From Bacilli bacterium (GTDB lineage: Bacteria; Bacillota_I; Bacilli_A; ML615J-28; CAG-698), in contig JAQUYJ010000001.1 of NCBI GenBank assembly GCA_028691905.1, forward strand, positions 1 to 39,977: 39,977 bases of DNA, written 5' to 3'. Numbering within the stretch: position 1 is the stretch's first letter; every line of letters begins with the position of its first letter. Of the stretch, positions 5,613 through 25,267 are shown piece after piece. The notes under the pieces were generated by a model. That model was not told the origin of the DNA and ran no database searches. It saw nothing but the letters and a program-made list of their open reading frames with translations. Made by a program: the position numbers and the translations under genes.

Positions 5613-5618
5613 AAATGA

Positions 5619-5647
5619 TTGCTATTTAAGAAGGTATATGGTATAAT
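5619..5647 (+). promoter_or_regulatory. Sigma-A promoter of rplS
   Basis: TTGCTA (5619-5624), 17-bp spacer, TATAAT (5642-5647) with upstream TGg (extended -10, tatggtataat). Confidence 0.65.
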
Positions 5648-5654
5648 AATTGAG

Positions 5655-5733
5655 GTTTGAAAAAGCCAAAGCACGGTGTTCCGCTACTATTCTTAGGATA
5701 GGAATGAACATTGGAAGAAGGAGCGTGAACGAA
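5655..5733 (+). promoter_or_regulatory. Possible ribosomal protein L19 leader (autoregulatory 5' UTR)
   Basis: An untranslated leader of about 80 nt lies between the promoter and the rplS RBS. It contains small hairpins (for example ctattc-tta-ggatag at about 5685-5699) and a ttctt tract complementary to the aagaa of the RBS region. L19 leaders are known in Bacilli, but I cannot verify the covariance model by eye. Confidence 0.3.
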
Positions 5734-6081
5734 ATGAGTCAACAATTGATTGATCAAATCACTAGTGAGTATATGCGTAATGATATTCCTGAATTCCGAC
5801 CTGGAGATACAGTAAAAGTGTTCGTTAAAATCAAGGAAGGTAACAGAGAACGTCTGCAAGCATTTGAAGGACTAGTAATCAAAAGACGCGGTGGAGGAAT
5901 CAGTGAAACGTATACAGTACGTAAAGTTTCCTATGGAATTGGTGTGGAAAGAACTTTTCCAATCCATACTCCAAATGTTGCTAAAATTGAAGTGGTTCGT
6001 AGAGGAAAAGTACGTCGAGCTAAATTAAATTACATTCGTACTTTATCAGCCAAGGCTGCTCGTATTAAAGAGCGCCGCTAA
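5734..6081 (+). CDS. rplS: 50S ribosomal protein L19
   Basis: ATG at 5734 with RBS gaaggag. [13 protein letters not shown]...FRPGDTVKV... is typical L19. The upstream part of the track ORF (5650-5733) is leader, not coding. Confidence 0.96.
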
Positions 6082-6084
6082 TAG

Positions 6085-6110
6085 AAAAGCAGGAAACTGC
6101 TTTTTTATTT
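6085..6110 (+). terminator. Rho-independent terminator after rplS
   Basis: aaaagcag-gaaa-ctgctttt followed by a T-run. Confidence 0.8.
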
Positions 6111-6128
6111 TAAAAATTTTTAAAAAAC

Positions 6129-6157
6129 TTGAAAAAGCTTTCATATTATGATACAAT
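6129..6157 (+). promoter_or_regulatory. Sigma-A promoter of the ccpA-like gene, overlapped by a cre-like box
   Basis: TTGAAA (6129-6134), 17-bp spacer, TACAAT (6152-6157) with TGa extended -10. The sequence tgaaaaagctttca (6130-6143) is cre-like with one central mismatch. Confidence 0.6.
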
Positions 6158-6186
6158 AAGACATCACAGTGAATAGAGGTGATTTT

Positions 6187-7173
6187 ATGAATCAAGCCAA
6201 GATATATGATATAGCCGGTGCTGCAGGTGTAAGTCTAGCTACTGTATCCCGTGTTTTAAACCATCCCGAAAAAGTGAAAAAAGGAACAAGAGAAAAAGTA
6301 CTTCGAATTATAAAAGAAAAAGGATATAAACCCAACGCCAATGCAAGGGGACTTGCAAGCAGAAAATCAACTACAGTAGCGGTTGTCGTTCCGACGGTTC
6401 TTAGGGCATCCATTTCTGAAATGATTCAGGGAATTGCCGACAGTGCAAAAAAATACGGATATTCCATTCGTCTTTTCGTCAATGGTCAGCATCAGACCAG
6501 TACGGATGCATGGTCCGATGTGATAGCATCCAGTGTGGATGGTATTTTGTTCATGAATGACGAAATGGAAAATGAAACATACGAGTTAATTGAACATACA
6601 CCAGTCCCTGTTATTTTTATTAATGCACTGTCAAAAAGCACTAAAATCGGCAGTGTCGGCATTGATAATGAAGACTGCTCCTACCGTGTTACAAAGGAAA
6701 TGATTACCCGTGGATTTAAAGATATTCTTTTCATTACAACCGAGCATAAATACGCAGTCAATGATTTAAAAGAAAAAGGATATCGTCGGGCAATGGAAGA
6801 ATTTCGTTTGCTACCATCTGTTTTTAAAAGCAGTGGTGATTTAGCAATAAACGAAAAGCAGTTCAAGGAAATGTTGGACAGTAGAACACCGGAAGTTGTT
6901 TTTGCGGTTCGTGATTCGATGGCGATTTCATTTATGAATGTGGCCAGCAAACGTGGAATCAAAATACCGGCACAAATGCAGGTTGTTGGTTTCCAGAATA
7001 CAAGATATGCTGAACTGTCCAATCCGAAACTAAGTTGCGTGGAAACACCGATTTATGAAATTGGCAATGTCGCCATGGAAAAATTAACAGAATTGATGAA
7101 AAATGCGGAAGAAACAAAACCGACAAATGTGGTAGTAGACTATCGAATTATTTATCGCGAATCAACTAAATAA
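6187..7173 (+). CDS. ccpA: LacI-family regulator, probable catabolite control protein A
   Basis: ATG at 6187 with RBS agaggtga. HTH IYDIAGAAGVSLATVSRVLN. As I remember B. subtilis CcpA, several blocks resemble it (GLASRKSTTVAVVVP, VDGILFMN, GFQNTRYAEL...IYEIGNVAMEKLTELM, C-terminal RESTK) and the length is similar. The position near tyrS also matches B. subtilis. Orthology needs an alignment to confirm. Confidence 0.65.
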   Translation: MNQAKIYDIAGAAGVSLATVSRVLNHPEKVKKGTREKVLRIIKEKGYKPNANARGLASRKSTTVAVVVPTVLRASISEMIQGIADSAKKYGYSIRLFVNGQHQTSTDAWSDVIASSVDGILFMNDEMENETYELIEHTPVPVIFINALSKSTKIGSVGIDNEDCSYRVTKEMITRGFKDILFITTEHKYAVNDLKEKGYRRAMEEFRLLPSVFKSSGDLAINEKQFKEMLDSRTPEVVFAVRDSMAISFMNVASKRGIKIPAQMQVVGFQNTRYAELSNPKLSCVETPIYEIGNVAMEKLTELMKNAEETKPTNVVVDYRIIYRESTK

Positions 7174-7199
7174 AAACGAAGAAAAAGAACAAGTAGACC

Positions 7200-7367
7200 T
7201 TTTTACATGCAGATAGAGAAATAGTGGCTGGTGAAAACTATTCTGTTGGAAGGATTGAAATACCTCTTTGGAGTTTTACCAAATAAATGAGGGCATCTGT
7301 TTACAGATGAACTAAGGTGGTACCGCTGGAAATTTCTAGTCCTTAGATAATATAAGGACTCTTTTTT
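7200..7367 (+). promoter_or_regulatory. T-box riboswitch leader, tyrosine-specific
   Basis: AGAGA bulge (7215-7219) and distal GGTGAAA. Candidate specifier UAC (7261-7263) after GAAA. T-box sequence aactaaggtggtaccgctgg (7310-7330). Terminator agtcctta / taaggact (7338-7360) plus T-run. ctaagg of the T-box is complementary to ccttag of the terminator 5' arm, giving the antiterminator. Confidence 0.9.
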
Positions 7368-7385
7368 ATGGAAAGGAATGATAAT

Positions 7386-8645
7386 ATGAAAAATATTTTA
7401 GAAGAATTAAAATGGCGCGGTTTAATATACGATATTATTAATGAAGAGGAATTGGAAAAAAGATTGCAGGAACCCATTACTTTGTATTGTGGATTTGATC
7501 CGACTGCAGACAGTTTGCATATAGGATCTCTTTTGCCAATTGTTACATTGATGCGATTCCATCAAGCCGGACATCGGATTATAGCTTTGACTGGAGGTGG
7601 AACAGGTTTAATAGGAGATCCCAGTGGCAAGAAAAATGAAAGACAAATGAATCAAGAAGAAACTGTCTTTTCCTGGGCGGAATTATTTAAGAAACAATTT
7701 GCCCGTTTTTTGCCCTTTGACGACGAAACAGCATTTTCACTTGACAATTATCAATGGCTGGGAGAAATGAAGGCCATTGATATGTGGCGTGAGTATGGGA
7801 AACATTTCAACATCAATTACATGCTGGCAAAGGATTCGGTAAAGTCCCGTCTGGACAATGGTCTCAGTTATCTGGAATTTTCCTATATGATTATGCAGTC
7901 CATTGATTTTTTGAAAATGTATCAGGATAATAAATTGCATTGTGAAATGCAAATAGGCGGGCAGGACCAATGGGGAAACATTACGGCCGGAATGGAACTG
8001 ATCCGCAAAGTGGCAGGAAGTGATGCGAAAGTATTTGGATTGACCCTACCCTTGATAACAAAAAGCGATGGTACAAAGTTTGGAAAAACGGAAAGCGGTG
8101 CAGTTTGGCTGGACGAAGAAAAAACATCTCCCTATGAGATGTACCAATTCTTTATCAATACTGCAGATGCAGATGTTATTCCATTCCTGAAGTATTATAC
8201 ATTCCTTAATAAAGATGAAATTGCTTCACTTGAAGAAAAAGTCCAAAAAGAACCTCATTTACGGGAAGCCCAGAAAACACTTGCGAAAGAAGTGGTAAAA
8301 TTGGTTCATGGCAAACAGGGATTGGAAAATGCAATGAAATTAACGGAAGCTTTATTCAGTGGAAACATTCAATCCTTGAACGTTCAGGAAATAAAAATGT
8401 GTTTCAATGATGTCGCTTTTATTGAAACAAAGGATGATATGGGCTTGCTTGATGCCTTAACCGCTTTACAGGCAGCATCCAGCAAAAGAGAAGGGCGGGA
8501 ATTCATTAAAAACGGTGCAATCAGTGTGAATGGAATTCAAGTCCGTGATTTGGAATTTGTTGTTCGTAAAGATGAAGCAATCGGCAAAGAATTCAGTGTT
8601 ATTCGCCGGGGAAAGAAAAATTATTATTTAATTAAACATCAATAA
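7386..8645 (+). CDS. tyrS: Tyrosyl-tRNA synthetase
   Basis: HIGH-type motif (LHIGSL), KMSKS-type motif (KFGKT), C-terminal S4 domain. ATG at 7386 is preferred over 7368 because 7368 directly abuts the terminator T-run and has no free RBS. Confidence 0.95.
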   Translation: MKNILEELKWRGLIYDIINEEELEKRLQEPITLYCGFDPTADSLHIGSLLPIVTLMRFHQAGHRIIALTGGGTGLIGDPSGKKNERQMNQEETVFSWAELFKKQFARFLPFDDETAFSLDNYQWLGEMKAIDMWREYGKHFNINYMLAKDSVKSRLDNGLSYLEFSYMIMQSIDFLKMYQDNKLHCEMQIGGQDQWGNITAGMELIRKVAGSDAKVFGLTLPLITKSDGTKFGKTESGAVWLDEEKTSPYEMYQFFINTADADVIPFLKYYTFLNKDEIASLEEKVQKEPHLREAQKTLAKEVVKLVHGKQGLENAMKLTEALFSGNIQSLNVQEIKMCFNDVAFIETKDDMGLLDALTALQAASSKREGREFIKNGAISVNGIQVRDLEFVVRKDEAIGKEFSVIRRGKKNYYLIKHQ

Positions 8646-8648
8646 AAA

Positions 8649-8705
8649 AACATCCACCAATGATAGAATATCAGATAAGCAGATATTCTGTCTTTGGTGG
8701 GTGTT
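8649..8705. terminator. Bidirectional terminator between convergent tyrS and trpS
   Basis: Long hairpin with outer stem aacatccaccaa / ttggtgggtgtt and inner stem agaatatc / gatattct. An A-run lies on one side and a T-run on the other. Confidence 0.75.
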
Positions 8706-9698
8706 TTATCTTCCGATTCCCATTAAGGAATATAGTTTTTGTAATTTTGAACGGGCGAACATGGATGCTCTTGCTTTTCCTTCATCAAGAATTTCGTCCA
8801 GCATAGGAGAATGAATCCATTCAAAATACTTTGTTTGAACTTGTTCGATTTCTTTTGCGACGATTTCAGCAAGATCATTCTTGAAATCACCATATCCCTT
8901 ACCTTCATATAAAGCAGTAATTGCCTGAAGCGAATCGCCGGTAATAGAGGAATAGATGGTCATCAAATTGGATATACCGGGTTTCTTTTCTGAATCAAAA
9001 TATACTTTTGCTTCGTTGTCGGTAACAGCGGCTTTTATTTTCTTTTTAATGGTTGGAATGGAGTCGAGTAGTGATATGCATCCTTTTGGATTTTCAGCTG
9101 ATTTATCCATTTTATTGGTTGGGCTTTGCAAATCCATTATTCTTGATCCTACTTTAACGGTAAGTGGTTCCGGGACAGTAAAAAAATCATGATAGCGGTT
9201 GTTGAACCTGGTTGCAAGATTTCTTGTCAATTCCAAGTGTTGAATCTGGTCGTCACCAACAGGAACATAGGAAGCGTCGTATAACAATATGTCGGCTGCC
9301 ATCAAGGCTGGGTAAGTAAAGAGGGCGGATGTAACACCTTGGACTTGTTTTTGCATCTTGTCTTTGTATTGGGTCATCCGTTCCAATTCCCCCATATAGG
9401 CTAGAGACTGCATGACATACCCCAATTCAACATGTTCATGGACTTCAGATTGGATGAAAAGGGTAAGGTTATCCAAATCAAGACCACTGGCCAAATAAAG
9501 TGCAGCAACACTTCTTGTGTGTTCTTTTAACTCTTGGGGATCCTGGGGGGTGGTAATGGCATGCAAATCGGCTACAAAAATCAAGAATTCAAATTCTTTC
9601 ATTTCATTTTGTAACCGTACAAAATTTTTCAATGCACCCAGGTAATTACCGAGTGTGGGAATGCCGGTCGGTTTGACTCCTGATAATACAAATTTCAT
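8706..9698 (-). CDS. trpS: Tryptophanyl-tRNA synthetase
   Basis: 330 aa. Class I motifs are present (TLGNYLGA in the HIGH position, KMDKS as KMSKS). Confidence 0.95.
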   Translation of the reverse strand: MKFVLSGVKPTGIPTLGNYLGALKNFVRLQNEMKEFEFLIFVADLHAITTPQDPQELKEHTRSVAALYLASGLDLDNLTLFIQSEVHEHVELGYVMQSLAYMGELERMTQYKDKMQKQVQGVTSALFTYPALMAADILLYDASYVPVGDDQIQHLELTRNLATRFNNRYHDFFTVPEPLTVKVGSRIMDLQSPTNKMDKSAENPKGCISLLDSIPTIKKKIKAAVTDNEAKVYFDSEKKPGISNLMTIYSSITGDSLQAITALYEGKGYGDFKNDLAEIVAKEIEQVQTKYFEWIHSPMLDEILDEGKARASMFARSKLQKLYSLMGIGR

Positions 9699-9766
9699 TA
9701 GGTATCATCTCCTCATTATTGCTGCATATTTTTAAAATAACAGCGACATTATCAAAATGCATACTT

Positions 9767-9795
9767 ATTATATCTAAAAAAAGATGAAAATGCAA
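9767..9795 (-). promoter_or_regulatory. Sigma-A promoter of trpS
   Basis: On the minus strand: TTGCAT (9795-9790), 17-bp spacer, TATAAT (9772-9767). The leader is about 60 nt and has no T-box sequence. Confidence 0.65.
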
Positions 9796-9813
9796 GTGAA
9801 ACAATAATTATCA

Positions 9814-9827
9814 TGTAAGCGTTTTAG
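9814..9827. promoter_or_regulatory. cre-like / LacI-family operator half-palindrome (site A)
   Basis: tgtaagcgttttag matches TGWAANCGNTNWCA except at the last two positions. Its first 12 nt are the exact reverse complement of part of site B. Confidence 0.45.
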
Positions 9828-9865
9828 AGAGCATTTTTTAAGGGTTTTACGCATTTATTTAACAT

Positions 9866-9879
9866 TGAAAACGCTTACA
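9866..9879. promoter_or_regulatory. cre box (site B), full match to TGWAANCGNTNWCA
   Basis: tgaaaacgcttaca lies 14 bp upstream of the -35 box of the opp-like operon promoter. Confidence 0.6.
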
Positions 9880-9893
9880 TTGAAAAAAACATG

Positions 9894-9922
9894 TTGACAT
9901 TTTCATAGAAAGTTTATATAAT
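9894..9922 (+). promoter_or_regulatory. Consensus sigma-A promoter of the opp-like operon
   Basis: TTGACA (9894-9899), exact 17-bp spacer, TATAAT (9917-9922). Confidence 0.75.
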
Positions 9923-10004
9923 ATATATAATCAAGATATATACAATTATTGTATCTATATTTGATGATTCATCTTTTTTATAATCAAAAAACGGGAGGAA
10001 AAAA

Positions 10005-11960
10005 ATGAAAAAGTTTTTGAGTGTAATGTTAGTATTTGCTCTTGCTTTTGCTGTTGTTGGTTGTAAACCGAAAGAAGTGGATGTTGAAACAACATTAGTT
10101 GTTGGAACAACTACTGAACCAGGCGTTAATATGTTTGGTACTTTCTGGGGAAACAATGCTTCTAATGCAGACGTAAGAGAATTGACTTTTGGTTATGGAA
10201 CTGTGTCATTCACCAAAGAAGGTAAATATGCAGTAGATCCTACATCAGTCAAAAGCCTAGTAGAAACAGAGAATACTGATGGAAGTAAAACATATACAAT
10301 CGAAATTAACACAGGATTGGTTTGGAATGATGGCGAACCAGTTACTGCGAAAGATTATGTGTTTGCTGTTCTATTAAGTATTAATCCGATTTTCTCTAGT
10401 GTAGTTGGAAAAAGCTTATCAACTGATGGAACCATCGTAGGTAGCAAGGATTTCAATGATCCAGATGTGAATACCGATGGTAAGGCTGAACTTCCTGGTT
10501 TGGATTTGATTAATGATTACAAGTTCTCCGTAACTATTGGGGCTGAAAATTTCCCATATTACTACGAATTCTTGTATTATTCTTTCACTCCATATCCACT
10601 ACATGTTTTAGCTCCAGAAGCTGATGTAGTTCAAGGAACAGAAGGCGCAAAAATGAGTGGCGTCTTCACTTCTGCTGTATTAGAAGATACAGTTGATGAT
10701 GGCGAAACCGGATATCGTTATGATATCAGCGTTACTTGCGGACCTTATGATTTATTTGATTTTGATGTTGAAACTTCAACAGCAACATTAAAGAGAAACC
10801 CATTATTTAAGGGCGATTATACTGGACAAGTTCCTGATATCGACAACGTTGTAATTAAATACGTTCCAAACTCTGTATTGTTACAATCCTTGGTTAATGG
10901 TGAAATTGACTTAATTGAATCTGTATCTGGTGGAGCAAACATCCAGGATGGATTATCTGAAGTTGCGTATGGAAAAATTAAATTTACAACATTCCCACGT
11001 AATGGTTACGGATTAATCGCATTCCACTGTGATGAACCTGCAGGTCCTACTTCTCAATTAGAAGTTCGTCAAGCTATTGCTTATTTAATTAATAGAGATT
11101 TATTCTTACAGACTTATACATTAGGATATGGCGTATTACCAAACGGTGAATATGGACTATCTCAATGGATGGTTGCTGCTTCTTCCAATGAAGACGGTGT
11201 TGTAATGGGTAAAAATGCTGATGGAGAACTAGTAGCACTAGAATCTTACAGTTACAATCCAACTAAAGCCGTTCAATTATTAGAAGCTGCTGGCTGGACT
11301 AAGAATGCTACAGGTGGAGCTTATGTTCAAGCTGAAGGCGCTGTTCGTTACAACGCTGATGGCGAAAAACTTGAGATTCCTTGGGCTAACACTCCAGATA
11401 ACCCAGTTTCTGAATTAATTCGTACTCAATTATTGCCAAATGCTGCTGCAGTAGGTATGAGCTTTATTGATACTACTATGGACTTCAATACTATGCTTTA
11501 TACTCACTATTATGGAGCATATGGTGATGGTTATGGATTACCAACCCAAGATGATGATGGCAACTGGTTAGTTCCTGAATACGAAGCTGAAGAAACAGAT
11601 GCTCGTGAATATCATATGGTTAACTTAGGAACTGGATTCAATCCTGGTCTATATGAACCTTACTATGATGTTTCTGTTGAGTACTGGGGCTGGGATGGCG
11701 GAGCCAATATCAGCTATCTATACGATGCAGATTTATTAGAAGCTGCGAAAGATATGAAATTTGCCGCTGATGATGATGAATATCTAGATGCATGGCAAAG
11801 ATATCAATATCGTTTCAATCAATTATTACCAAGCTTACCATTGTATTCCGATATGTATCATGCATTCTTTACAACTAAGCTAAGTGATTATGAAGTTACA
11901 CCTGAATGGACTATGACTTCAGCAATTCTTTATGCTAAGATGGAAGAAGTAGCTGAATAA
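10005..11960 (+). CDS. oppA: ABC transporter substrate-binding lipoprotein, family 5 (Opp/Dpp type)
   Basis: Lipoprotein signal MKKFLSVMLVFALAFAVVGC (lipobox VVGC). 651 aa with SBP_bac_5-like regions. Codon usage looks highly expressed. RBS gggagga. Confidence 0.85.
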   Translation: MKKFLSVMLVFALAFAVVGCKPKEVDVETTLVVGTTTEPGVNMFGTFWGNNASNADVRELTFGYGTVSFTKEGKYAVDPTSVKSLVETENTDGSKTYTIEINTGLVWNDGEPVTAKDYVFAVLLSINPIFSSVVGKSLSTDGTIVGSKDFNDPDVNTDGKAELPGLDLINDYKFSVTIGAENFPYYYEFLYYSFTPYPLHVLAPEADVVQGTEGAKMSGVFTSAVLEDTVDDGETGYRYDISVTCGPYDLFDFDVETSTATLKRNPLFKGDYTGQVPDIDNVVIKYVPNSVLLQSLVNGEIDLIESVSGGANIQDGLSEVAYGKIKFTTFPRNGYGLIAFHCDEPAGPTSQLEVRQAIAYLINRDLFLQTYTLGYGVLPNGEYGLSQWMVAASSNEDGVVMGKNADGELVALESYSYNPTKAVQLLEAAGWTKNATGGAYVQAEGAVRYNADGEKLEIPWANTPDNPVSELIRTQLLPNAAAVGMSFIDTTMDFNTMLYTHYYGAYGDGYGLPTQDDDGNWLVPEYEAEETDAREYHMVNLGTGFNPGLYEPYYDVSVEYWGWDGGANISYLYDADLLEAAKDMKFAADDDEYLDAWQRYQYRFNQLLPSLPLYSDMYHAFFTTKLSDYEVTPEWTMTSAILYAKMEEVAE

Positions 11961-12004
11961 TAAGCTAGTTAACGCAATCGTAATTAAAAAGTAAATAAAA
12001 TGAA

Positions 12005-12037
12005 GGAGATTGGTGTTAGCCAATCTCCCTAATTTTT
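12005..12037 (+). terminator. Intra-operon hairpin (partial terminator / mRNA stabiliser) after the binding-protein gene
   Basis: ggagattgg-tgttag-ccaatctcc followed by ctaattttt. This is the usual position for differential expression of the binding protein relative to the membrane components. Confidence 0.55.
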
Positions 12038-12051
12038 AGAAGGAGATAAAA

Positions 12052-13056
12052 ATGTCAAGATATATCATAAAAAGAATTGTATACATATTTTTTGTCGCAA
12101 TATTGATTACTGTTATCTTGTTCTTATTGTATAAATCCATTCCCGGGGGAGATACTGCCCGTGTTTTTGCCTATGTTGATCAAAACTTAAAAAGAACTAA
12201 CCCAGCATTATATGTCATAAAAATGCAAGAAGCTATCGAGGAATTGGGAATCAATAAACCAGATATCGTTCAATACTTTTTGTGGGTGAAAAGTGTCTTA
12301 AAAGGTAATCTTGGATATACATTATATACAAACGAACCTGTACTTCAATATATTAAAGCGCCTTTAGGGAATACAGTAAAATTAAATTTAGTTGTAATGT
12401 TTTTTGTTTTCGCAATAACATTTCCATTAGGTATCAAATCAGCAGTTAAAAAGTATTCAACATTTGATAACAGTGTTCAGGTGTTCACTATTGTTGGGAT
12501 GTCCTTACCAAGTTTCTTCATTGCCTTGATTTCCATTTTAATATTTTCTGCAACGTTAGGATGGCTGGCAAGTAACGGAATGAATTCCGGTATTTTAGCC
12601 CGAAGCAATATGACTGGTTTTGAGCGGCTCTTGGATAGCTTGAAATACATGATAATGCCGGTATTTGTTTTAACGGCATCATCACTGGCTGGAATTACCA
12701 GGTATGTTCGAGGGGCAATGATCGATATTCTTTCCCAGGATTACATCAGAACAGCACGTGCGAAAGGACTAAAAGAAAAAGTAGTCATTTATTCCCATGC
12801 TTTTCGTAATGCAATGATTCCTGTAATCACCATACTGGCCGGTTGGTTTCTTGGTATATTTGGTGGTGCCACCATTACAGAAACAATCTTCGGTTGGAAC
12901 GGAATGGGAAAAGTAATGTTTGATGCATTAATGCAGGGACCGGACTATGCTGTTATTATGGCAATGAACCTGTTTTATACTGTACTTGGTTTAGTTGGTA
13001 ATTTGATACTTGATGTATTGTATACTGTAGTAGATCCAAGGGTTAAGTTGGGGTAG
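12052..13056 (+). CDS. oppB: ABC transporter permease, OppB/DppB type
   Basis: 334 aa, multi-TM, EAA loop IRTARAKGLKEKVVIYSHAFRNA. RBS aaggaga. Confidence 0.9.
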   Translation: MSRYIIKRIVYIFFVAILITVILFLLYKSIPGGDTARVFAYVDQNLKRTNPALYVIKMQEAIEELGINKPDIVQYFLWVKSVLKGNLGYTLYTNEPVLQYIKAPLGNTVKLNLVVMFFVFAITFPLGIKSAVKKYSTFDNSVQVFTIVGMSLPSFFIALISILIFSATLGWLASNGMNSGILARSNMTGFERLLDSLKYMIMPVFVLTASSLAGITRYVRGAMIDILSQDYIRTARAKGLKEKVVIYSHAFRNAMIPVITILAGWFLGIFGGATITETIFGWNGMGKVMFDALMQGPDYAVIMAMNLFYTVLGLVGNLILDVLYTVVDPRVKLG

Positions 13057-13060
13057 AGAT

Positions 13061-15031
13061 ATGAAGAAAAATAACTTTATTGAGAATGTTAGAGATTTTT
13101 TCATTATTATTGGAAGAGCACTTAAAAATGCTTTTGTCCGTGCCTTTTTTGGTACACATAAAGAACTTTCCATGTTGGAAGAAGAAGCAGTAGAAAGTCC
13201 GCTAAAGGGAGCTACTCGGAAATTTTTTAAAAACAAATTAGCCATTATCGGCTTAATTGTGTTTCTCGCAATATTTGCGTTTTGTTTTGTTGGAAGTATT
13301 TTTATTAAGGATAAAGAGTATCGTTATTTAAATATTACACAAAGAAATATCAGCCCGGGCTATCAAATGATGGCTGTTCCCAAGGGCTTGCAGGAAAACG
13401 GAATACTGGATATAGCTGTTGGTTCAAAATACAGTGCCGGTATTGATTTAGACAACAATGTTTATCTGTGGGGACAGGACATTAACAACTTAGTAGAAGA
13501 CTTTCCCCAAGGTCAAGCTGCACCTTCTGATTTAAAAGTTGGAAGAGATGCGATTGCCGGTTTGAAAGCAAAACGTGTCTGGGCCGGTCAAACCCATTTT
13601 ATGTTTGAAAAAATGGACGGAACACTTGAAGGAATCGGAATACGAACAGATATCGTTTCATTTGGATTAACAGCAGTACCAACTGCCGTCTTGTCCGGAG
13701 CTGTATTGGTTAATATAGCACAGCAGATTCAATTGGATGGCGGTGTCCTGGACATGGTTTTATTTAATCAAATAAACCTCGTCATTACCAAAAAGAACCG
13801 CGTGTTTATGTGGGGAAATACGGTTGGAAGAACGACTAATTTTTCTGCAGTCAATGCTTTAAAACCAGTTCAAGCAGGATTTTCGCGCAGTAATATTACG
13901 TTTCTTTATGAAGATGGCACTGTTGGTGTTATCGGTGAAGGAAGTTTGAAAAATACCCTTCCCGCCGGACTGAGTGGCATTGTTCAGATTGTAACTACAG
14001 CGGGAAGTGCATTGGCATTAAAAGCTGATGGGACATTTATTACCTGGGGTGATAATTTGTCCAAGGAATTTGAATATGATGACTCCATCCAGGGCCGTAT
14101 TAAGAAATTATCTAAATCAGCTTTGGGCTCAGATAACTATCAGCATTTTACAGCTGTACTGGATGATGGATCAGTATATTCATGGGGAAGCAATCAATAC
14201 AATGCTTCCACTCCACCTAAAAAATTAGCAGAAGGAACCGAAGCAGCAAATGTATTTTCTGGATATTTCCAAAATTATGTCATTGACGAAGAAGGAAAAT
14301 TGCTGGGTACCTATGGATTAAAAGGACACTTGTTTGGAACAGATGATTATGGTCGGGATTTGTTGGACCGAGTAATGGGTGGCGGAAGAATTTCCTTAAC
14401 AATCGGATTGATTGCTGTCATCATTTCCACAACAATCGGAATTATTATTGGTGGTACTGCCGGATTTTACGGTGGTAGAGTAGATATATTATTAATGCGT
14501 TTTAGTGAAGTGGTTGGATCAATTCCATTCTTGCCGATTGCGATGACTTTCTCGGCAATTTTAAGCAGAACCAATCCTGATATGACAACGACGGATCGAA
14601 TGGTTATGATTATGATTATTCTCGGTGTCTTGAGTTGGACCGGATTGGCTTATCTTATTCGAGCTACCATTTTGTCAGAAAGAGAAAAGGAATTTGTTAC
14701 CGCTGCGAAAGCACTTGGTGTAAAAAACCGAGCAATTATATTCAGACATATTATTCCTAATGTATTAACTATTATTATTATCAGTGCAACTCTTGGTTAT
14801 GCATCTTCCTTATTGACTGAAGCTGGTCTTTCATTCCTGGGATTTGGTGTTCAGTTACCTGCTCCTTCTTGGGGGAACTTATTAACGGGTGCTCAGGAAA
14901 TGACAGTTATTAAAGTCTATTGGTGGCGTTGGGTATTCCCATCTGTCTTATTGTGTCTTGCAACCATAAGTATTAACTTAATCGGTGATGCAATAAGAGA
15001 TGCTGTGGATCCACGTTCCAGTGAAAGATAG
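13061..15031 (+). CDS. oppC: ABC transporter permease, OppC/DppC type, with a large RCC1-like repeat insertion after TM1
   Basis: 656 aa. TM1 is at about residues 59-82. The conserved OppC_N motif LFGTDDYGRDLLDRV is at about 424-438. EAA loop VTAAKALGVKNRAIIFRHIIPN. Residues of about 100-420 are extra and carry seven WG/IG/YG-terminated repeats. Confidence 0.88.
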   Translation: MKKNNFIENVRDFFIIIGRALKNAFVRAFFGTHKELSMLEEEAVESPLKGATRKFFKNKLAIIGLIVFLAIFAFCFVGSIFIKDKEYRYLNITQRNISPGYQMMAVPKGLQENGILDIAVGSKYSAGIDLDNNVYLWGQDINNLVEDFPQGQAAPSDLKVGRDAIAGLKAKRVWAGQTHFMFEKMDGTLEGIGIRTDIVSFGLTAVPTAVLSGAVLVNIAQQIQLDGGVLDMVLFNQINLVITKKNRVFMWGNTVGRTTNFSAVNALKPVQAGFSRSNITFLYEDGTVGVIGEGSLKNTLPAGLSGIVQIVTTAGSALALKADGTFITWGDNLSKEFEYDDSIQGRIKKLSKSALGSDNYQHFTAVLDDGSVYSWGSNQYNASTPPKKLAEGTEAANVFSGYFQNYVIDEEGKLLGTYGLKGHLFGTDDYGRDLLDRVMGGGRISLTIGLIAVIISTTIGIIIGGTAGFYGGRVDILLMRFSEVVGSIPFLPIAMTFSAILSRTNPDMTTTDRMVMIMIILGVLSWTGLAYLIRATILSEREKEFVTAAKALGVKNRAIIFRHIIPNVLTIIIISATLGYASSLLTEAGLSFLGFGVQLPAPSWGNLLTGAQEMTVIKVYWWRWVFPSVLLCLATISINLIGDAIRDAVDPRSSER

Positions 15032-15042
15032 GAGGAAACACG

Positions 15043-16038
15043 ATGGCACTATTAGAAGTTAAAGATCTCCACACTTTCTTTACAACCAAAAGAGGTATTG
15101 TAAAGGCAGTTAACGGAATGACATATGAATTGGAAGAAGGAAAAACATTGGGTATTGTTGGGGAAAGTGGTTCTGGAAAGAGCGTTTCCGCGATGAGTAT
15201 TCTTCGTTTACTGGATGGAAATGGTTATATTGACAGTGGAACTGTCCTTCTGGACGGTGTGGATCTGACAAAAGTTGATGAAGCAGCGCTGCAATATATC
15301 CGTGGCAATAAAATATCAGTCATTTTCCAAGAGCCCATGACCTCTTTAAATCCGGTATTTACTGTAGAAAAGCAAATTGGTGAAGTATTCCAAATTCACC
15401 AAGGAATGACAAAAAAAGAATCCTACGCGAAAAGTGTTGACTTATTGCGTGAAGTAGGGATTCCCAATCCGGAAAAAGTGGCAAAAAACTATCCCCATCA
15501 ATTAAGTGGCGGGATGAGACAACGGGTTATGATTGCGATGGCACTGGCCTGTCGTCCCCGAATTTTAATTGCGGATGAACCTACTACTGCTTTGGATGTA
15601 ACCATCCAAGCTCAGATTTTAAAATTAATGAATGACTTAAAAAAAGAATCCAATATGGCAATTATCTTTATTACTCATGATTTGGGTGTTATAAATGAAA
15701 TGGCTGATGATGTTATCGTTATGTATTGTGGTGAGATTGTAGAAAAGGCATCCGCAAAAGTGATTTTTGCGGAATCATCCGATTACACTCATCCTTATAC
15801 AGAAGGATTGATGACCTCTATTCCACGTTTAAACAAAGGAAAAGAGCGATTGGATGCCATCCCAGGTGCAGTTCCCCATCCACTTGATTTACCGGTAGGA
15901 TGTAAATTTGCACCCCGATGCAAATATGCAACAGCAAAATGCCAGGAAAAAGAACCGGATCTGCTATTGGTAGAAGAAGGACACAGCGTAAGATGTTTCT
16001 ATCCGAAAAAAGGGGTGAGAAGTAATGGCGAAAAGTAA
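15043..16038 (+). CDS. oppD: ABC transporter ATP-binding protein, OppD/DppD type
   Basis: Walker A GESGSGKS, signature LSGGMRQR, Walker [14 protein letters not shown]-terminal Opp-type Cys motif [18 protein letters not shown] aggagga. Confidence 0.93.
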
Positions 16039-18175
16039 AACACTGACCAATACTCCTTTAATTAAAATTGTAGGAGTAAAAAAGCACTTTCCACTGAAAA
16101 AAACGCGCTTGTTTCAACGAGAAGTTTTGACTGTAAAGGCAAATGATGGAATTGATTTAACTATAAACAAGGGAGAAACACTTGGTTTAGTAGGTGAAAG
16201 TGGTTGTGGGAAATCAACACTTGGCCGCGTATTACTGCAACTTTATCCTGTTACATCGGGGAAAATCATTTATTATGGTTATAATGTTGATCAATATGCA
16301 CCGAAATATTTTACGAGAGAAATAAGACGATTGCATTTGTCTAAGGAAATGCGGGAAAGACTGGAAGCAAAAATTCCCCTTCTTGAAGAAAAAATTAAAG
16401 AGCTGCAAGCCGATGAAGTTGAAAAGGCAAAACGAAATGAATTAGCTGCGAAAATAAAAGAATTGGAAAAAGCAAATCAGAATTTATGGGACGAATGCCA
16501 TGGTAAGCATCAGGCTTTCATCGTAAGTGAAGATATTCATGCTATCCGTCGTTTTCCAAAGTTGGATTCATATATTGCCAAGGCTGAAGCTAAAATTACG
16601 AAATTACAACAAAAAATTGACGATTATGAGGGTACGCGGGAAAGTGCAAAACAGTATCGTAATCCGAAAGCAGAAGCGGAAGTTGTAGAATTAAAAAAAC
16701 AAATCGAAGTTGCTGAATTAAGCTGCATTGCTGATTTAAATAAAAAATTAGCTATCGCAGAACGTAAAGCAAATTATAAATTATATGAATTGGATTTGAA
16801 TATTTTAAATACTCAGAATAAAATCAACTTAATCAAAAACGAAATGATGATGCACGCGCAGCGAATTAAATCCAGTTTAGATAAACCGATTGAATTAAGT
16901 TCTGATGTTCTGAAAAGCTTGGTTGAATATAAAGAAAAATATCATGCAAATAAGCAGTTAATCAAGCAATATCAAGCAGTAATCGACTTTAAAAAACAAA
17001 AAGATGAAATTCAAAAGATTCAAAACAGAATTGATAAAATTTTGGATAATGCTGCAAACGCAACCGGCGGTTATGTATTAAGCAATCAATCCTTAAAAGT
17101 ATCACAAAGCTTGTTTCAACGTGTTGCAAACTTACGTAAAATTGTCGATGAAGAAGAGAAAATTCAAATTTGCAAAGTAGCAAAGTTTAGAACTGAAAAA
17201 GAGCTGGAAGCAAAAAAGGATAAACTAACCAATTTGCAAATTAACAAATTGCAGAAAAAAATTGTGAAATACGAAGAAAACCTGGCTTTATCTGACCAAA
17301 AAATTCAAGAATTTAACCGTTTGGTTGACGAAGCCAATGTTGAATTAAGAAAACTAAAAGAAGAAGTCAAACAAAATGAATTATTTGATGAATTGGAAGC
17401 AAAAAGAGAAAAAGGAATTGATTTATCCCGTTTAACAAACGAGGAAATGCGTATTTTACGTAAACATCTCCAATTAATTTTCCAGGATCCTTATTCCTCA
17501 TTGAATCCAAGAATGACAGTTGGTCAGATTATTTATGAAGGTATAAGAGCGCATCATTTGGATGAACTGACTTATGACGACAAACAAGAACAAATTATCA
17601 AAGTAATGGAGAAATGCGGATTGGCACCATATATGCTTCATCGTTATCCTCATCAGTTTTCTGGTGGACAACGTCAACGAATCGGTATCGCTCGTGCCCT
17701 TGCTGTAAATCCGACTTTTGTCGTCTGCGATGAAGCTGTCAGTGCCCTTGACGTATCTATTCAATCACAGATAATCAACTTGCTCGAAGATTTAAGAGAC
17801 AATGAAAATCTAACCTACTTGTTTATTTCTCACGATTTAAGTGTTATTAAACATATTAGTGACCGAATCGGCGTTATGTATTTAGGTAATATGGTAGAAT
17901 TGGGTGATTCTGATGCAGTTTACGAAAGACCACTTCACCCTTATACCAAAGCTTTAATTTCATCTATTCCAACTACAGATCAGGAGCAAAGGAAACGAAT
18001 TTTATTAGAAGGAGATATTCCTTCCAATGTATTCCCACCTAGTGGATGTAAATTCAGAACCAGATGTCCATTGGCCCGTAAAGCATGTGCAGAAAAAGTA
18101 CCTGAGTTTAGAGAAGTAGAACCGGGAAGATTCGTTGCCTGTCATTTCTATGAAGAAACAGAAAATCTTAGATAG
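16025..18175 (+). CDS. oppF: ABC transporter ATP-binding protein, OppF/DppF type, interrupted by a coiled-coil insertion of about 375 aa
   Basis: 716 aa, with a 14-nt overlap with oppD. Walker A GESGCGKST (about residues 57-65). Q-loop LIFQDPYSSLNPR begins only at about residue 484. Signature FSGGQRQR, Walker B FVVCDEAVSALD, C-terminal GCKFRTRCPLARKAC. Residues of about 91-466 are Lys/Glu/Leu/Ile/Gln-rich and heptad-like. Confidence 0.9.
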   Translation: MAKSKTLTNTPLIKIVGVKKHFPLKKTRLFQREVLTVKANDGIDLTINKGETLGLVGESGCGKSTLGRVLLQLYPVTSGKIIYYGYNVDQYAPKYFTREIRRLHLSKEMRERLEAKIPLLEEKIKELQADEVEKAKRNELAAKIKELEKANQNLWDECHGKHQAFIVSEDIHAIRRFPKLDSYIAKAEAKITKLQQKIDDYEGTRESAKQYRNPKAEAEVVELKKQIEVAELSCIADLNKKLAIAERKANYKLYELDLNILNTQNKINLIKNEMMMHAQRIKSSLDKPIELSSDVLKSLVEYKEKYHANKQLIKQYQAVIDFKKQKDEIQKIQNRIDKILDNAANATGGYVLSNQSLKVSQSLFQRVANLRKIVDEEEKIQICKVAKFRTEKELEAKKDKLTNLQINKLQKKIVKYEENLALSDQKIQEFNRLVDEANVELRKLKEEVKQNELFDELEAKREKGIDLSRLTNEEMRILRKHLQLIFQDPYSSLNPRMTVGQIIYEGIRAHHLDELTYDDKQEQIIKVMEKCGLAPYMLHRYPHQFSGGQRQRIGIARALAVNPTFVVCDEAVSALDVSIQSQIINLLEDLRDNENLTYLFISHDLSVIKHISDRIGVMYLGNMVELGDSDAVYERPLHPYTKALISSIPTTDQEQRKRILLEGDIPSNVFPPSGCKFRTRCPLARKACAEKVPEFREVEPGRFVACHFYEETENLR

Positions 18176-18356
18176 GTTAAATGTTACTCCGGAAAAAGAG
18201 CGATTAGCAAAAGAAAATCTAAAAAATAATCCGTTGGAAAAGAATGATATGAAAGCGATAATGATTGCTGCATTTCTGGCTTTTGTTTTACCTACAATAC
18301 TTGTTCTGGGAGTAATAGCATTTATTATTTGGTTAATTATCATTATGATTGCATAA
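18150..18356 (+). CDS. Small hypothetical membrane protein (single C-terminal TM)
   Basis: The ORF fills the gap between the oppF stop (18175) and the operon terminator (18361). It has a charged N-terminal part and the hydrophobic stretch AIMIAAFLAFVLPTILVLGVIAFIIWLIIIMIA. No strong RBS is visible, and the start is uncertain (18135, 18150 or 18249). Confidence 0.4.
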   Translation: MKKQKILDRLNVTPEKERLAKENLKNNPLEKNDMKAIMIAAFLAFVLPTILVLGVIAFIIWLIIIMIA

Positions 18357-18360
18357 ATAA

Positions 18361-18390
18361 AACAAGACCTAGTTTAGGTCTTGTTTATTA
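18361..18390 (+). terminator. Rho-independent terminator of the opp-like operon
   Basis: aacaagacct-agttt-aggtcttgtt followed by a T-rich tail. Confidence 0.75.
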
Positions 18391-18467: not shown

Positions 18468-18896
18468 ATGTTGAAACTGTATACCTCTCCAAGTTGCTTA
18501 TCTTGTCGCAAAGTAAAAAAATATTTCAATAAATATAATATTCCCTATATCGAAAAAAACATTTTACATAACAAATTATCACGTGATGAAATTTTTAAAA
18601 TGCTTGCCAACAGTGAAAATGGATTTGAAGATATCATATCAATGCGTTCCAAAATAATCAAAGAACAGAATATTGATTTGGATTCCATGAAAATTCACGA
18701 ATTAGTGGATTATATTGTTGCCAATCCCACTATCTTAAAAAGACCGATTATTGTTACAGATTATGAAATTCAAGTAGGATACAACGATGATGATATTACT
18801 TTGTTCTTGCCTCCGGAAATTCGGGAGCGGGAATGCCAATTTTGTTTGGGTCCAAATGAAGATTGCGACTATGTGAAAGCGCTGAAGATAGAATAA
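18468..18896 (+). CDS. spx: Spx/ArsC-family RNA-polymerase-binding redox regulator
   Basis: MLKLYTSPSCLSCRKVKKYF... carries the N-terminal CxxC. RPIIV...QVGYNDDDI is conserved in Spx. 142 aa with an atypical Cys-rich C-terminal tail. Confidence 0.9.
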   Translation: MLKLYTSPSCLSCRKVKKYFNKYNIPYIEKNILHNKLSRDEIFKMLANSENGFEDIISMRSKIIKEQNIDLDSMKIHELVDYIVANPTILKRPIIVTDYEIQVGYNDDDITLFLPPEIRERECQFCLGPNEDCDYVKALKIE

Positions 18897-18919
18897 AAAA
18901 AGCCCGTTGGGCTTTTTTT
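18895..18919. terminator. Bidirectional terminator between spx and the CYTH gene
   Basis: A6-agccc-gtt-gggct-T7. Confidence 0.8.
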
Positions 18920-19517
18920 AATGCAATCTTTTATATGTGTTAAATGCACGTTTAATCTTTTTGTCGGATTTCTTATATTGAATATCAAAATCACTGATTA
19001 ATTGAATAAATTCTTTTTTCCCCAGTTCATAGTCTTTTGCTTCATATTCCATTTCATGGTCCATTAATTGGACTATTTTATTATCGTTCATAATAGTAGG
19101 GAACTGATAAGTGCTTTCATCAATAAAAAGGATACCGCTGTAGTAGTTAAGAAATAAACGGTTAGTGGAAAGACTTAAAAAATTTATCAGTTTTTGATCT
19201 TTAATAATATGGGATAATTCAGCTTGTAAATCTTCCAATTTCAATAAACCGGTTGTTTGTAACTCGATTAGTTCAGATTGGGTGATTGGAATGGAAATTT
19301 CATTGACAGAATATCCCTTTTTATGCTTAAGAGCAATCTCAAATCGGTCATCCCGTTCTTTAACCCGCAGGGAAATATCCTGTGCTTTTAATGAAAAACG
19401 AGGGGTATCAAAATAATGATTGGTTTGTAAGTCCGTTTTATTTCCTTGAAATTGATGAATTAATCGATTATATTCATCTTTTGTAAGCAGACTTCTGAAC
19501 TCTTTACCTTTTTGCAT
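18918..19517 (-). CDS. yjbK: CYTH-domain protein (YjbK-like triphosphate tunnel metalloenzyme family)
   Basis: 199 aa. The block NHYFDTPRFSLKAQDISLRVKER and the overall size resemble B. subtilis YjbK as I recall it. It is adjacent to the small alarmone synthetase, as in Bacilli. Confidence 0.75.
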   Translation of the reverse strand: MQKGKEFRSLLTKDEYNRLIHQFQGNKTDLQTNHYFDTPRFSLKAQDISLRVKERDDRFEIALKHKKGYSVNEISIPITQSELIELQTTGLLKLEDLQAELSHIIKDQKLINFLSLSTNRLFLNYYSGILFIDESTYQFPTIMNDNKIVQLMDHEMEYEAKDYELGKKEFIQLISDFDIQYKKSDKKIKRAFNTYKRLH

Positions 19518-19548
19518 GATTCAGCTTACTCCTTTCATAGTATATTAT

Positions 19549-19576
19549 ATTATACATAATATCTAGAAGTAGTCAA
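19549..19576 (-). promoter_or_regulatory. Sigma-A promoter of the CYTH gene
   Basis: On the minus strand: TTGACT (19576-19571), 16-bp spacer, TATAAT (19554-19549). Confidence 0.55.
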
Positions 19577-19657
19577 CTATTTTTTACTTTTTTTTAATTA
19601 TTGAATAAAATGATGAAAAAAAACAAAAAATATGGTAAAATAGAAAGGGTGATGAAA

Positions 19658-20350
19658 ATGAAGGAAACATTTAATTGGACTCTTTTTTTACAACCGTATG
19701 AATTGGCGATAAATGGTTTTATTATAAAATTAGAATCAATCAAACAACAGTATATTTTGAATGGAAAAAAGAATCCAATTGAATTGATAACAGGGCGGGT
19801 AAAAACGCCGGAAAGTATTTTGGAAAAAGCAAAAAGACTACAGGTTGCTTTTGACGATATCCCGGAAAAAATCCAGGATATTGGGGGAATCCGAATTACC
19901 TGTAAGTATATTAACGATGTGTATTATGTTTTTGATTTACTTAAATCGAGAAAAGACATTGAAATTGTGTTAATAAAAGATTACATTAAGGAACCGAAGG
20001 CATCGGGATATCGTTCTCTTCACGCAATTGCAAGATATCATGTTGAAACCATTGACGGACAACAACCGATTTATATTGAATTTCAAATTCGGACTTTGGC
20101 GATGCATTTATGGGCAAGTATCGAACATTCCTTAAAATACAAATACGTCCGTAACATTCCGGAAAATATTCGAACACGGTTATTGAAAGCTTCTGAAATC
20201 ACAGCCGAACTGGATGCGGAAATGTCTTACATTCAAGCTGAAGTAGAAGCAGCCAATGGCTTGCATCATCCTGTTGAAGAAGTATTGAAAAAACACCAGG
20301 ACAGTGAATTGGAATGGGGTATTAATACACTGAAAAGAGGAAGTTTATGA
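19658..20350 (+). CDS. relQ: Small alarmone synthetase (RelQ/YjbM-type GTP pyrophosphokinase)
   Basis: RelA/SpoT synthetase motifs are present: GRVKTPESILEK, DIGGIRITC, SGYRSLH, EFQIRTLAMHLWASIEH. The start at 19658 (MKETFNWTLFLQPYE) aligns with YjbM-type N-termini and has RBS aaagggtga. A tatggTAAAAT box at 19631-19641 would give a very short leader. Confidence 0.88.
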   Translation: MKETFNWTLFLQPYELAINGFIIKLESIKQQYILNGKKNPIELITGRVKTPESILEKAKRLQVAFDDIPEKIQDIGGIRITCKYINDVYYVFDLLKSRKDIEIVLIKDYIKEPKASGYRSLHAIARYHVETIDGQQPIYIEFQIRTLAMHLWASIEHSLKYKYVRNIPENIRTRLLKASEITAELDAEMSYIQAEVEAANGLHHPVEEVLKKHQDSELEWGINTLKRGSL

Positions 20351-25027: not shown

Positions 25028-25253
25028 AACAAATCGATGATGGAGAACCAGTATATTGATTTTGTCTTTTCAGAGAGGAAATGGGTGGTGCAAATTTCCA
25101 GGACAACCAATAGAATTCATCTCCGGAGTGACTCCAATCCAGTCCGTTTACCTGGCGTTAACAGGGAACGAGGGCATCAATTACGTAATTGGTGAACTAA
25201 GGTGGTACCGCGATTTTTTCGTCCTTAGAAGACATCTCTTCTAAGGATTTTCT
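25028..25253 (+). promoter_or_regulatory. T-box riboswitch leader, phenylalanine-specific
   Basis: AGAGAGG bulge (25072-25078). Specifier GAA-UUC-A (UUC at 25116-25118). T-box aactaaggtggtaccgcg (25195-25212). Terminator tccttagaaga / tcttctaagga (25222-25247) plus a T-rich tail. Confidence 0.92.
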
Positions 25254-25267
25254 ATTTGGAGGAAAAT

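Follow-up and report, generated by a model that had tools for sequence, protein, structure and literature searches.

The oppC gene and its permease parts

We analysed a 39,977-nt stretch of DNA from a Bacilli bacterium (GenBank contig JAQUYJ010000001.1, positions 1 to 39,977 of the forward strand; called the window below), which holds an operon for an oligopeptide (Opp) importer of the ATP-binding cassette (ABC) type. The operon consists of oppA, oppB, oppC, oppD, oppF and a small open reading frame (ORF), all on the + strand. Its oppC, which we call oppC-RCC1, encodes what is almost certainly an OppC-type peptide-importer permease with a compact seven-bladed propeller of the BLIP-II kind, inserted on the extracytoplasmic side between the first transmembrane (TM) helix and the GTD motif.

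The oppC-RCC1 gene (13061..15031 including the stop codon, + strand) starts 4 nt past the oppB stop and is preceded by GGGGTAGAG, which resembles a ribosome-binding site. An earlier reading of the window, made from the letters alone (the sequence-only reading), had described a 656-aa ORF at this place and on this strand, about twice the usual size of OppC/DppC permeases, with canonical permease ends and the motif LFGTDDYGRDLLDRV, and each of these statements holds. The protein is identical to NCBI MDD3191133.1 and MDY0063686.1, and the motif lies at aa 424-438. Solved OppC/DppC chains have 287-302 aa and align to residues 415-653 only (phmmer search of the Protein Data Bank, PDB), so about 337 residues between TM1 and the GTD motif/TM2 are extra.

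For the two ends of the protein, Pfam, hydropathy and Foldseek agree. The cytoplasmic N-terminus and OppC_N/TM1 (about aa 59-82) make up aa 1-83 (13061..13309), with a hydropathy peak of 2.95 at residues 60-78, a model helix at 59-81 and an OppC_N match that passes the Pfam cutoff (aa 46-83; 37.3 bits against 23.9). The first 58 aa contain 11 K/R and a predicted amphipathic helix at residues 3-30. By hydropathy, TM1 at about 60-82 is followed by five TM segments from residue 441 on, and together with the model helices this gives six TM helices, with the EAA-type coupling loop on the cytoplasmic side, connecting TM4 to TM5. Canonical OppC homology resumes at G421, just ahead of TM2, with the GLKGxLFGTDxxGRD motif (aa 421-440; 14321..14380), where the alignment to Escherichia coli OppC (8z21_B) begins with query residue 421 at chain residue 80; G422, G426, D428 and G431 are invariant in the family alignment. 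The TM2-TM6 core (aa 441-656; 14381..15028) contains BPD_transp_1 above the Pfam gathering score (aa 460-653; 104.4 bits against 26.4) and the EAA-type loop EFVTAAKALGV...IPNV (aa 543-567), which aligns with that of E. coli OppC. In Foldseek searches of PDB, the core matched the OppC, DppC and Mycobacterium tuberculosis OppC (MtbOppC) chains with E values of 1e-16 to 1e-12, TM-scores per target (TMt) of 0.73-0.74 and root-mean-square deviations (rmsd) of 2.2-2.3 A, the best being 8z21_B (E 2.6e-16, TMt 0.73, rmsd 2.3 A).

The surrounding operon also supplies what an OppC/DppC protein is expected to have beside it, that is, OppA, OppB and two ATPases with oligo_HPY domains. Among the NCBIfam models Opp4C, Opp3C and PRK15406, none was matched at equivalog level, and the best, Opp4C, reached 306.4 bits against a cutoff of 350. 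By its profile matches, the protein belongs to the OppC/DppC family and is not an equivalog of a characterised system.

A seven-bladed propeller between TM1 and TM2

The segment at 13358-14320 corresponds to residues 100-420, for which the sequence-only reading had proposed a seven-bladed RCC1/BLIP-II-like propeller built from seven repeats. All seven repeat strings were found in the translation (aa 115-140, 171-193, 229-253, 270-294, 307-332, 362-381 and 396-419), and the propeller itself is borne out jointly by Pfam, models and Foldseek. The RCC1 profiles that the same reading named for the insert behaved differently from each other: RCC1_2 (PF13540) passes the Pfam cutoff in three stretches (56-60 bits against 22), and classical RCC1 (PF00415) stays below it (13-18 bits against 21.7). 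WD40_RLD (PF25390) is also below its cutoff (61-65 bits against 150), despite E values of 1e-16 to 1e-17. The blades resemble one another more than shuffled blades do, with a summed pairwise local score of 491 against 392 +/- 19 (z = 5.1).

We built an AlphaFold2 model of the full OppC from 41 family members, and it gave the seven-bladed propeller anticipated for such a model. The mean predicted local distance difference test (pLDDT) is 85.7 and the predicted TM-score (pTM) 0.78, and the model shows an N-terminal helix, TM1 at 59-81, seven groups of beta-strands at 115-419 and the helical core. Compared with PDB by Foldseek, the insert matches BLIP-II best (E 2e-12, TMt 0.71), followed by UVR8, the RCC1-like domains (RLDs) of HERC1/2, RPGR and yeast RCC1; the matches other than OppC chains are RCC1-superfamily propellers, and no carbohydrate-binding propeller is among the top 50. 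Residues 281-405 also match BLIP-II at 1e-7 in a phmmer search of PDB. A second model was made for a relative from Treponema (P0070; 586 aa, about 41% identical), which has a pLDDT of 84.0, a pTM of 0.77 and seven three-strand blades with a period of about 40 residues. Its top PDB match is again BLIP-II (E 3e-19, TMt 0.78-0.79, rmsd 2.3-2.4 A, 26% identity). The BLIP-II alignment is full-length in both cases, covering 282 columns/271 residues for the window protein and 247/269 for P0070. Seven predicted blades thus close into one propeller in two independent models.

Along the protein, the linker from TM1 to blade 1 (aa 84-113; 13310..13399) carries the motif TQxNxxPG...PKxL, with P99 and P107 invariant. 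Blade 1 (aa 114-146; 13400..13498), in which W137-G138 is invariant, has model strands at 115-120, 124-129, 133-138 and 144-146. Blade 2 (aa 168-217; 13562..13711; strands 169-175, 179-184 and 189-194) is followed by a clade-specific loop, then by blade 3 (aa 218-267; 13712..13861; strands 229-234, 238-243 and 248-252), blade 4 (aa 268-304; 13862..13972; strands 269-274, 278-283 and 288-292) and blade 5 (aa 305-350; 13973..14110; strands 307-312, 316-321 and 326-330). Blade 6 (aa 351-392; 14111..14236; strands 362-367 and 372-376) holds the best RCC1_2 match at residues 360-381, while blade 7 (aa 393-420; 14237..14320; strands 395-401, 404-409 and 414-419) contains the family-specific motif YFQNY. 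Mean conservation is highest for blade 7 among the blades (2.47 bits), followed by blade 1 (2.31 bits) and the TM1 linker (2.30 bits), compared with 1.8-2.0 bits in blades 2-4, where indels and large secondary insertions are concentrated. The clade of the window has added loops between blades 1 and 2 and between blades 2 and 3.

Location and attachment of the propeller

The propeller must be extracytoplasmic, because the N-terminus carries positive charge and the EAA loop has to be turned towards the ATPase. This agrees with the outer-face location proposed earlier, which is further supported by the topology of DppBC and by the insert itself, in which hydropathy and the family alignment show no conserved TM segment. 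In structures of E. coli DppABCDF (PMC12136057), DppA forms a cap over the two permeases, DppB and DppC, whose TM1-TM2 regions lie in the periplasm; the propeller is placed on the OppC half of the surface at which OppA docks. A possible hidden TM segment at 198-219 (hydropathy 1.87) was considered and rejected, as it is clade-specific, polar in homologues and modelled within the propeller.

Both ends of the insert leave from neighbouring blades, 1 and 7, through conserved and confidently modelled connectors (pLDDT 90-94 from residue 91 and 90-93 around residues 421-440), so the propeller is probably rigid on the transmembrane domain. These connector values, together with a pTM that is high for a two-domain protein, suggest a fixed orientation of the modelled propeller. 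None of the 337 residues of the insert is a cysteine.

A widespread family of propeller-bearing OppC proteins

The identical protein was found on 15 contigs from several sources, and its NCBI entries carry the label "ABC transporter permease subunit" and come from a Bacilli bacterium metagenome-assembled genome. Full-length homologues of 653-665 aa with 59-70% identity and the same synteny exist in independent metagenome-assembled genomes, such as "Tenericutes bacterium ADurb.BinA124", another Bacilli genome and further contigs, where the shared gene order is trpS, oppABCDF, spx-like, CYTH and small alarmone synthetase. The G+C content is even throughout the oppC gene. The sequence-only reading had allowed that the insertion might come from an assembly chimera or a frameshift, and the 15 contigs with an identical protein and the full-length homologues in independent assemblies contradict this. 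A simple fusion could not yield the ORF either, since OppC_N/TM1 lies upstream and the transmembrane domain downstream of the insert.

The family is much larger than these close relatives. We searched 1.84 billion representatives of 50%-identity clusters exhaustively with HMMER, and among the top 150 at least 47 combine RCC1 and OppC domains; both domains occur in the same order in 93 of 299 fetched proteins. Members with 35-45% identity come from the isolate Sedimentibacter sp. zth1, Oliverpabstia and Treponema, and the family, which is conserved across dozens of lineages of anaerobes, has gut and digester metagenomes among its sources. Apart from generic RCC1 proteins, searching with only the insert gave a single close partial relative; this search was limited by its word index, and we rejected the rarity that it implied after full-length and HMMER searches had found the family.

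Thus propeller-bearing OppC proteins form a widespread family, already deposited in databases and domain-annotated by automatic pipelines, in which the individual proteins are annotated only as "ABC transporter permease". The statement that no Opp permease with a built-in propeller had been described therefore stands in part: in full-text literature searches we found no paper describing an RCC1 propeller in OppC or another ABC permease, but the arrangement is not peculiar to this genome and is widespread in databases.

Longer variants of 773-1142 aa retain the order OppC_N ... RCC1 ... BPD_transp_1 and add unassigned extracellular sequence. P0044, P0045 and P0046 (821-899 aa; locus L090, 7001-9700) have a K/E/A-rich, coiled-coil-like segment of about 200 aa within the propeller region, and this sister lineage has the same synteny as the window. 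In Sedimentibacter sp. zth1 (L005, CP071445.1), two complete RCC1-type cassettes stand in tandem (5093-12481 and 12963-17848), each with its own long OppA, which makes this isolate a convenient experimental system. Read with table 11, the RCC1-OppC frame of L049 (2042-3840) is interrupted by seven stops, all of which disappear with table 4, so the family is also present in an organism in which TGA is a sense codon. Two other loci (L033 and L050) look like frameshifted assemblies.

Besides the RCC1 type, 61 fetched relatives carry unrelated inserts of about 130-630 aa without a Pfam match at the OppC TM1-TM2 loop, which is therefore a general insertion hot spot. Examples are P0079, P0080, P0082, P0092, P0118, P0144, P0227, P0251 and P0267, as well as locus L088; P0144 has precomputed EF-hand matches in its loop insert.

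The six-gene cassette

To describe the partner genes, 80 metagenomic loci were surveyed and their ORFs scored with the window proteins. The first gene, oppA (10005..11960), encodes a 651-aa lipoprotein with the lipobox VVGC at residues 17-20 and a divergent SBP_bac_5 domain. OppA proteins of RCC1-type cassettes score 146-998 bits against the window OppA, compared with 18-38 bits for those beside a plain OppC; they are long (598-806 aa) and nearly all have a lipobox. By these scores, the cassette OppA forms a subfamily of its own. For its substrate, no NCBIfam equivalog was reached and the nearest solved OppA is PDB 9P48 (101 bits); the transported substrate is probably peptides. In two 65%-identical relatives (L003, 5359-7776; L004, 6492-8912), OppA reaches 805-806 aa through two N-terminal tandem repeats of about 75 aa with the pattern ..VKVG..ITL....P.A.F.W.SSN...ATVNNGVVTGV..G.A..T.., which have the appearance of bacterial immunoglobulin (Ig)-like repeats.

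The next permease gene, oppB (12052..13056), encodes 334 aa, an ordinary length, and keeps the BPD_transp_1_N region according to Pfam. Downstream of oppC, oppD (15043..16038) is an ordinary ATPase of 331 aa with four C-terminal cysteines (aa 287, 293, 300 and 318); OppF has four as well (aa 675, 681, 688 and 706). The spacing is that of E. coli DppD/DppF, where these residues coordinate [4Fe-4S] (PMC12136057).

The second ATPase gene, oppF-long (16025..18175), encodes 716 aa, with Pfam ABC_tran matched in two stretches. They are separated by an insertion of some 375 residues (about 86-462; nt about 16280-17410), which is K/E-rich, helical or coiled-coil in character as judged from its composition only, and has no significant Pfam or NCBIfam match. 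It is located between the strand after Walker A and the segment G[IV]DLxxLTxxEMRxLR...FQDP (GIDLSRLT...FQDP in the window). Alignment with short-insert and plain OppFs shows a common core of about 150 aa, which has grown to about 375 aa in the clade of the window. Among the RCC1-type loci with two intact downstream ATPase genes, there are 28 in which the second ATPase has 473-724 aa. It had been asked earlier whether the oppC insertion always co-occurs with a long OppF; of 32 RCC1 cassettes that are intact, this is so in about 30, the exceptions without the OppF insertion being L009 and L017. In L018 the long ATPase seems to come first after oppC (491 then 312 aa), which suggests that the oppF-oppD order is swapped there, and the seemingly short OppF of L047 is a split long one. 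In plain OppC operons, OppF has 318-360 aa and none of five has the insertion.

The sixth gene (18135..18356) encodes a single-pass membrane protein of 73 aa if read from TTG, with a probable start at ATG 18150 (MKKQK...). The protein has a basic N-terminus, the motif PLEK[NG]DxxA[ML][IL]I[AS]A (PLEKNDxxAxxIAA in the window) and then one TM helix, and it matches no Pfam or NCBIfam family. Homologues of 58-113 aa were found directly after oppF, for instance in L001 (4064-4270), L005 (12293-12481), L006 (12318-12608) and L007 (12230-12427). Of the 34 RCC1 cassettes whose oppF is complete, 27 have such a small ORF, compared with one of seven controls, where the motif is missing. It may be a sixth subunit of the transporter. 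We also considered that the OppF insertion and the small protein accompany big-loop OppC proteins in general, and rejected this, as the non-RCC1 operon L088 has ordinary ATPases and lacks the small gene.

Several candidate expression signals were found by consensus scans. A promoter-like TTGACA-17-TATAAT (12 of 12 consensus positions) lies upstream of oppA at 9894..9922 (+ strand). A hairpin of 10-11 bp between oppA and oppB (12005-12028) may be an intra-operon attenuator, and a 12-bp hairpin directly after the small ORF (18360..18386) is likely the operon terminator.

Comparison with known systems

For OppC/DppC, we used E. coli OppBCDF (8z21), E. coli DppABCDF (8z1v-8z1z) and M. tuberculosis OppABCD (8j5q) as references. 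The window protein shares with them OppC_N/TM1, GTDxxGRD, the six-TM core, the EAA loop and the oppABCDF operon, with 41% identity to E. coli OppC across the core and a TM-score of 0.73. The difference is in the TM1-TM2 segment, which is short and periplasmic in the solved chains of 287-302 aa and has about 337 residues inserted here.

The best functional analogue is the P2 loop of MalF in MalFGK2, which is also a folded extracytoplasmic domain in a permease loop of a type I importer, by the docking site. P2 has an Ig-like fold and about 185 aa, lies between TM3 and TM4 and belongs to an unrelated permease subfamily, whereas the propeller of OppC comprises about 330 aa and separates TM1 from TM2; contact with the binding protein has been shown for P2 and is presumed here by analogy. 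As fold and loop both differ, the OppC propeller is an analogue of MalF-P2 and not a member of its kind.

In fold, the nearest protein is BLIP-II of Streptomyces exfoliatus (1jtd, 3qhy, 3qi0), with the same seven short blades of about 40 aa and the signature G..H...dG.vy.WG. BLIP-II is a free secreted beta-lactamase inhibitor, while the OppC propeller forms part of a membrane protein; what links the two is their fold and a weak similarity of sequence only, so we do not file the propeller as BLIP-II. From the wider RCC1-like superfamily (UVR8, HERC2 RLDs, RCC1), the insert differs in that the PF00415 and WD40_RLD profiles remain below their Pfam cutoffs. The CRINKLY ectodomain of ACR4 (7a0j) is another seven-bladed extracellular propeller on a membrane protein and is matched by P0070 in Foldseek (TMt 0.69-0.73), but ACR4 is eukaryotic, a single-pass signalling receptor (a plant receptor kinase), with 15-16% identity.

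For the ATPases, the mycoplasma profiles MMSYN1_0167 (OppD) and MMSYN1_0168 (OppF) are similarly long, with 561 and 649 positions against about 330 for ordinary OppD/OppF. The window OppF matches MMSYN1_0168 in two stretches at 295 bits, below the equivalog cutoff of 800; this comparison concerns length and not the position of the insertion. The corresponding mycoplasma OppC profile, MMSYN1_0166 (307 positions), has no propeller.

Possible functions of the propeller

The sequence-only reading had offered substrate capture, docking or anchoring as roles. The one that we favour, while granting it slightly less than an even chance, is that the propeller docks the cognate OppA, as analogy and co-inheritance would have it. 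It would be a protein-protein docking platform for the divergent, long, lipid-anchored OppA of its own cassette, holding OppA at the translocator, already bound or in the right orientation, and perhaps signalling whether OppA is loaded, much as maltose-binding protein is served by the Ig-like P2 loop of MalF. Translocation itself would be ordinary, with the OppB/OppC pathway and the OppD/OppF ATPases, and the propeller is one of three co-inherited accessories, together with the helical insertion in OppF and the small single-pass protein. Two observations count for docking, namely that every top structural relative of the insert is a protein-binding propeller and that the propeller is inherited along with a distinct, mostly lipobox-bearing OppA subfamily. 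Since the linker and blades 1 and 7 are best conserved and blades 2-4 carry the indels, a rigid membrane-proximal base with a free distal rim also fits. There is a precedent in MalF-P2, which binds MalE with a dissociation constant of 7-22 uM throughout the cycle (PMC6906923).

Several points weigh against docking. Analogy and co-inheritance are the only grounds for a contact between propeller and OppA, and co-inheritance with OppA is expected of any operon partner. There is no obvious conserved surface patch on the insert, where strong conservation falls mostly on residues of the structural RCC1 signature (G, W, H, P), and the conservation of blades 1 and 7 could reflect only the attachment to the transmembrane domain. 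Besides, canonical Opp and Dpp systems dock their binding proteins without a propeller domain, and OppB of the window retains the region that forms the scoop motif, so the docking machinery is not obviously missing.

The strongest competitor, although unlikely, is that the propeller binds another partner at the surface, such as a protease that is secreted or bound to the wall, a penicillin-binding protein or a protein of beta-lactamase fold, an envelope polymer, or a host or dietary protein. The transporter would then be positioned at substrate sources or capture them. Such a role would suit a fold whose closest relative, BLIP-II, is a picomolar binder of a soluble enzyme, and it would suit a family from gut and digester anaerobes; the distal blades 2-4, variable and open to large insertions, are as expected of a surface that adapts to diverse partners, and the variants of 773-1142 aa add still more extracellular sequence. 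However, OppA and the small membrane protein are the only conserved partner genes in the cassette, and the absence of carbohydrate-binding propellers from the top 50 Foldseek matches also speaks against it.

It is fairly unlikely that the cassette represents an unrecognised subclass of Opp importers, in which an accessory apparatus on OppC and OppF couples extracellular protein recognition to ATPase control or cytoplasmic recruitment. With a similarly low expectation, this apparatus would consist of the extracellular BLIP-II-like propeller, of the helical insertion in the ATPase as an arm on the cytoplasmic side, and of the single-pass protein as a sixth subunit, and the transporter would double as a receptor or scaffold.

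Quite improbable, in our view, is the reading in which the propeller is an outside sensor and forms, with the OppF insertion and the small protein, a trans-membrane module on the OppC-OppF half that would gate the ATPase or recruit cytoplasmic partners upon an extracellular cue. The co-inheritance of the three accessories agrees with it, given the frequencies of the OppF insertion (30 of 32 RCC1 cassettes, none of five plain controls, not in L088) and of the small protein (27 of 34 cassettes against one of seven controls, that one without the motif). DppC pairs specifically with DppF in the solved complex (PMC12136057), and MalF-P2 has been reported to signal substrate availability to MalK (PMC6906923). 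Yet the argument is one of co-occurrence alone, Pfam finds no known signalling domains, and the parts are separable, since the OppF insertion is missing from L009 and L017, where both propeller and small protein are retained.

A propeller without a specific ligand, which would serve at a permissive loop as structural bulk or as a shield, stabilising the permease or keeping it at a distance from the wall or S-layer, seems improbable. It is a serious alternative all the same because of the 61 OppC relatives with unrelated inserts of about 130-630 aa at the same loop, one of them with EF-hands, and the small number of conserved propeller residues that are not structural also agrees with it. Against it, members of Bacilli, Clostridia and Spirochaetes with identities between 35% and 100% all retain the complete seven-bladed fold, which argues for selection on more than bulk. 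Last, that the long ORF is an assembly chimera or frameshift fusion of an RCC1 gene with oppC is virtually impossible, because the single close relative from the insert-alone search, which might hint at it, is outweighed by the identical copies on 15 contigs, the syntenic homologues of 653-665 aa, the even G+C and the 93 proteins with both domains in the same order.

The usual picture of type I ABC importers is that of minimal machines. MalF-P2, the one built-in periplasmic domain that has been studied well, has been termed "unique" in a review of the maltose system (PMC6906923), and here a far larger and differently folded domain is built into a peptide-permease family of at least three lineages of guts and anaerobic digesters. 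If the propeller docks OppA, it would be a second independent case of recruitment of a binding protein by a permease-borne domain, and a tractable system for studying what keeps lipid-anchored binding proteins close to the translocator. With some other partner, it would give Opp systems a receptor-like role. The insertion hot spot at TM1-TM2 also matters for annotation, because such proteins are labelled merely "ABC transporter permease".

Other features of the window

Two T-box leaders on the + strand score above the Rfam gathering threshold. The first (7170-7347; 105 bits) lies upstream of a 425-aa ORF at 7368, and the second (25028-25229; 111 bits) upstream of an ORF at 25256, whose counterpart in syntenic loci has phenylalanyl-tRNA synthetase domains. 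A tRNA scan found no tRNA genes in the window. Downstream of the cassette, at 18468-20350, are the neighbours that are kept in the lineage of the window, which encode an ArsC/Spx-family protein, a CYTH-domain protein (minus strand) and a small alarmone synthetase with a RelA_SpoT domain.

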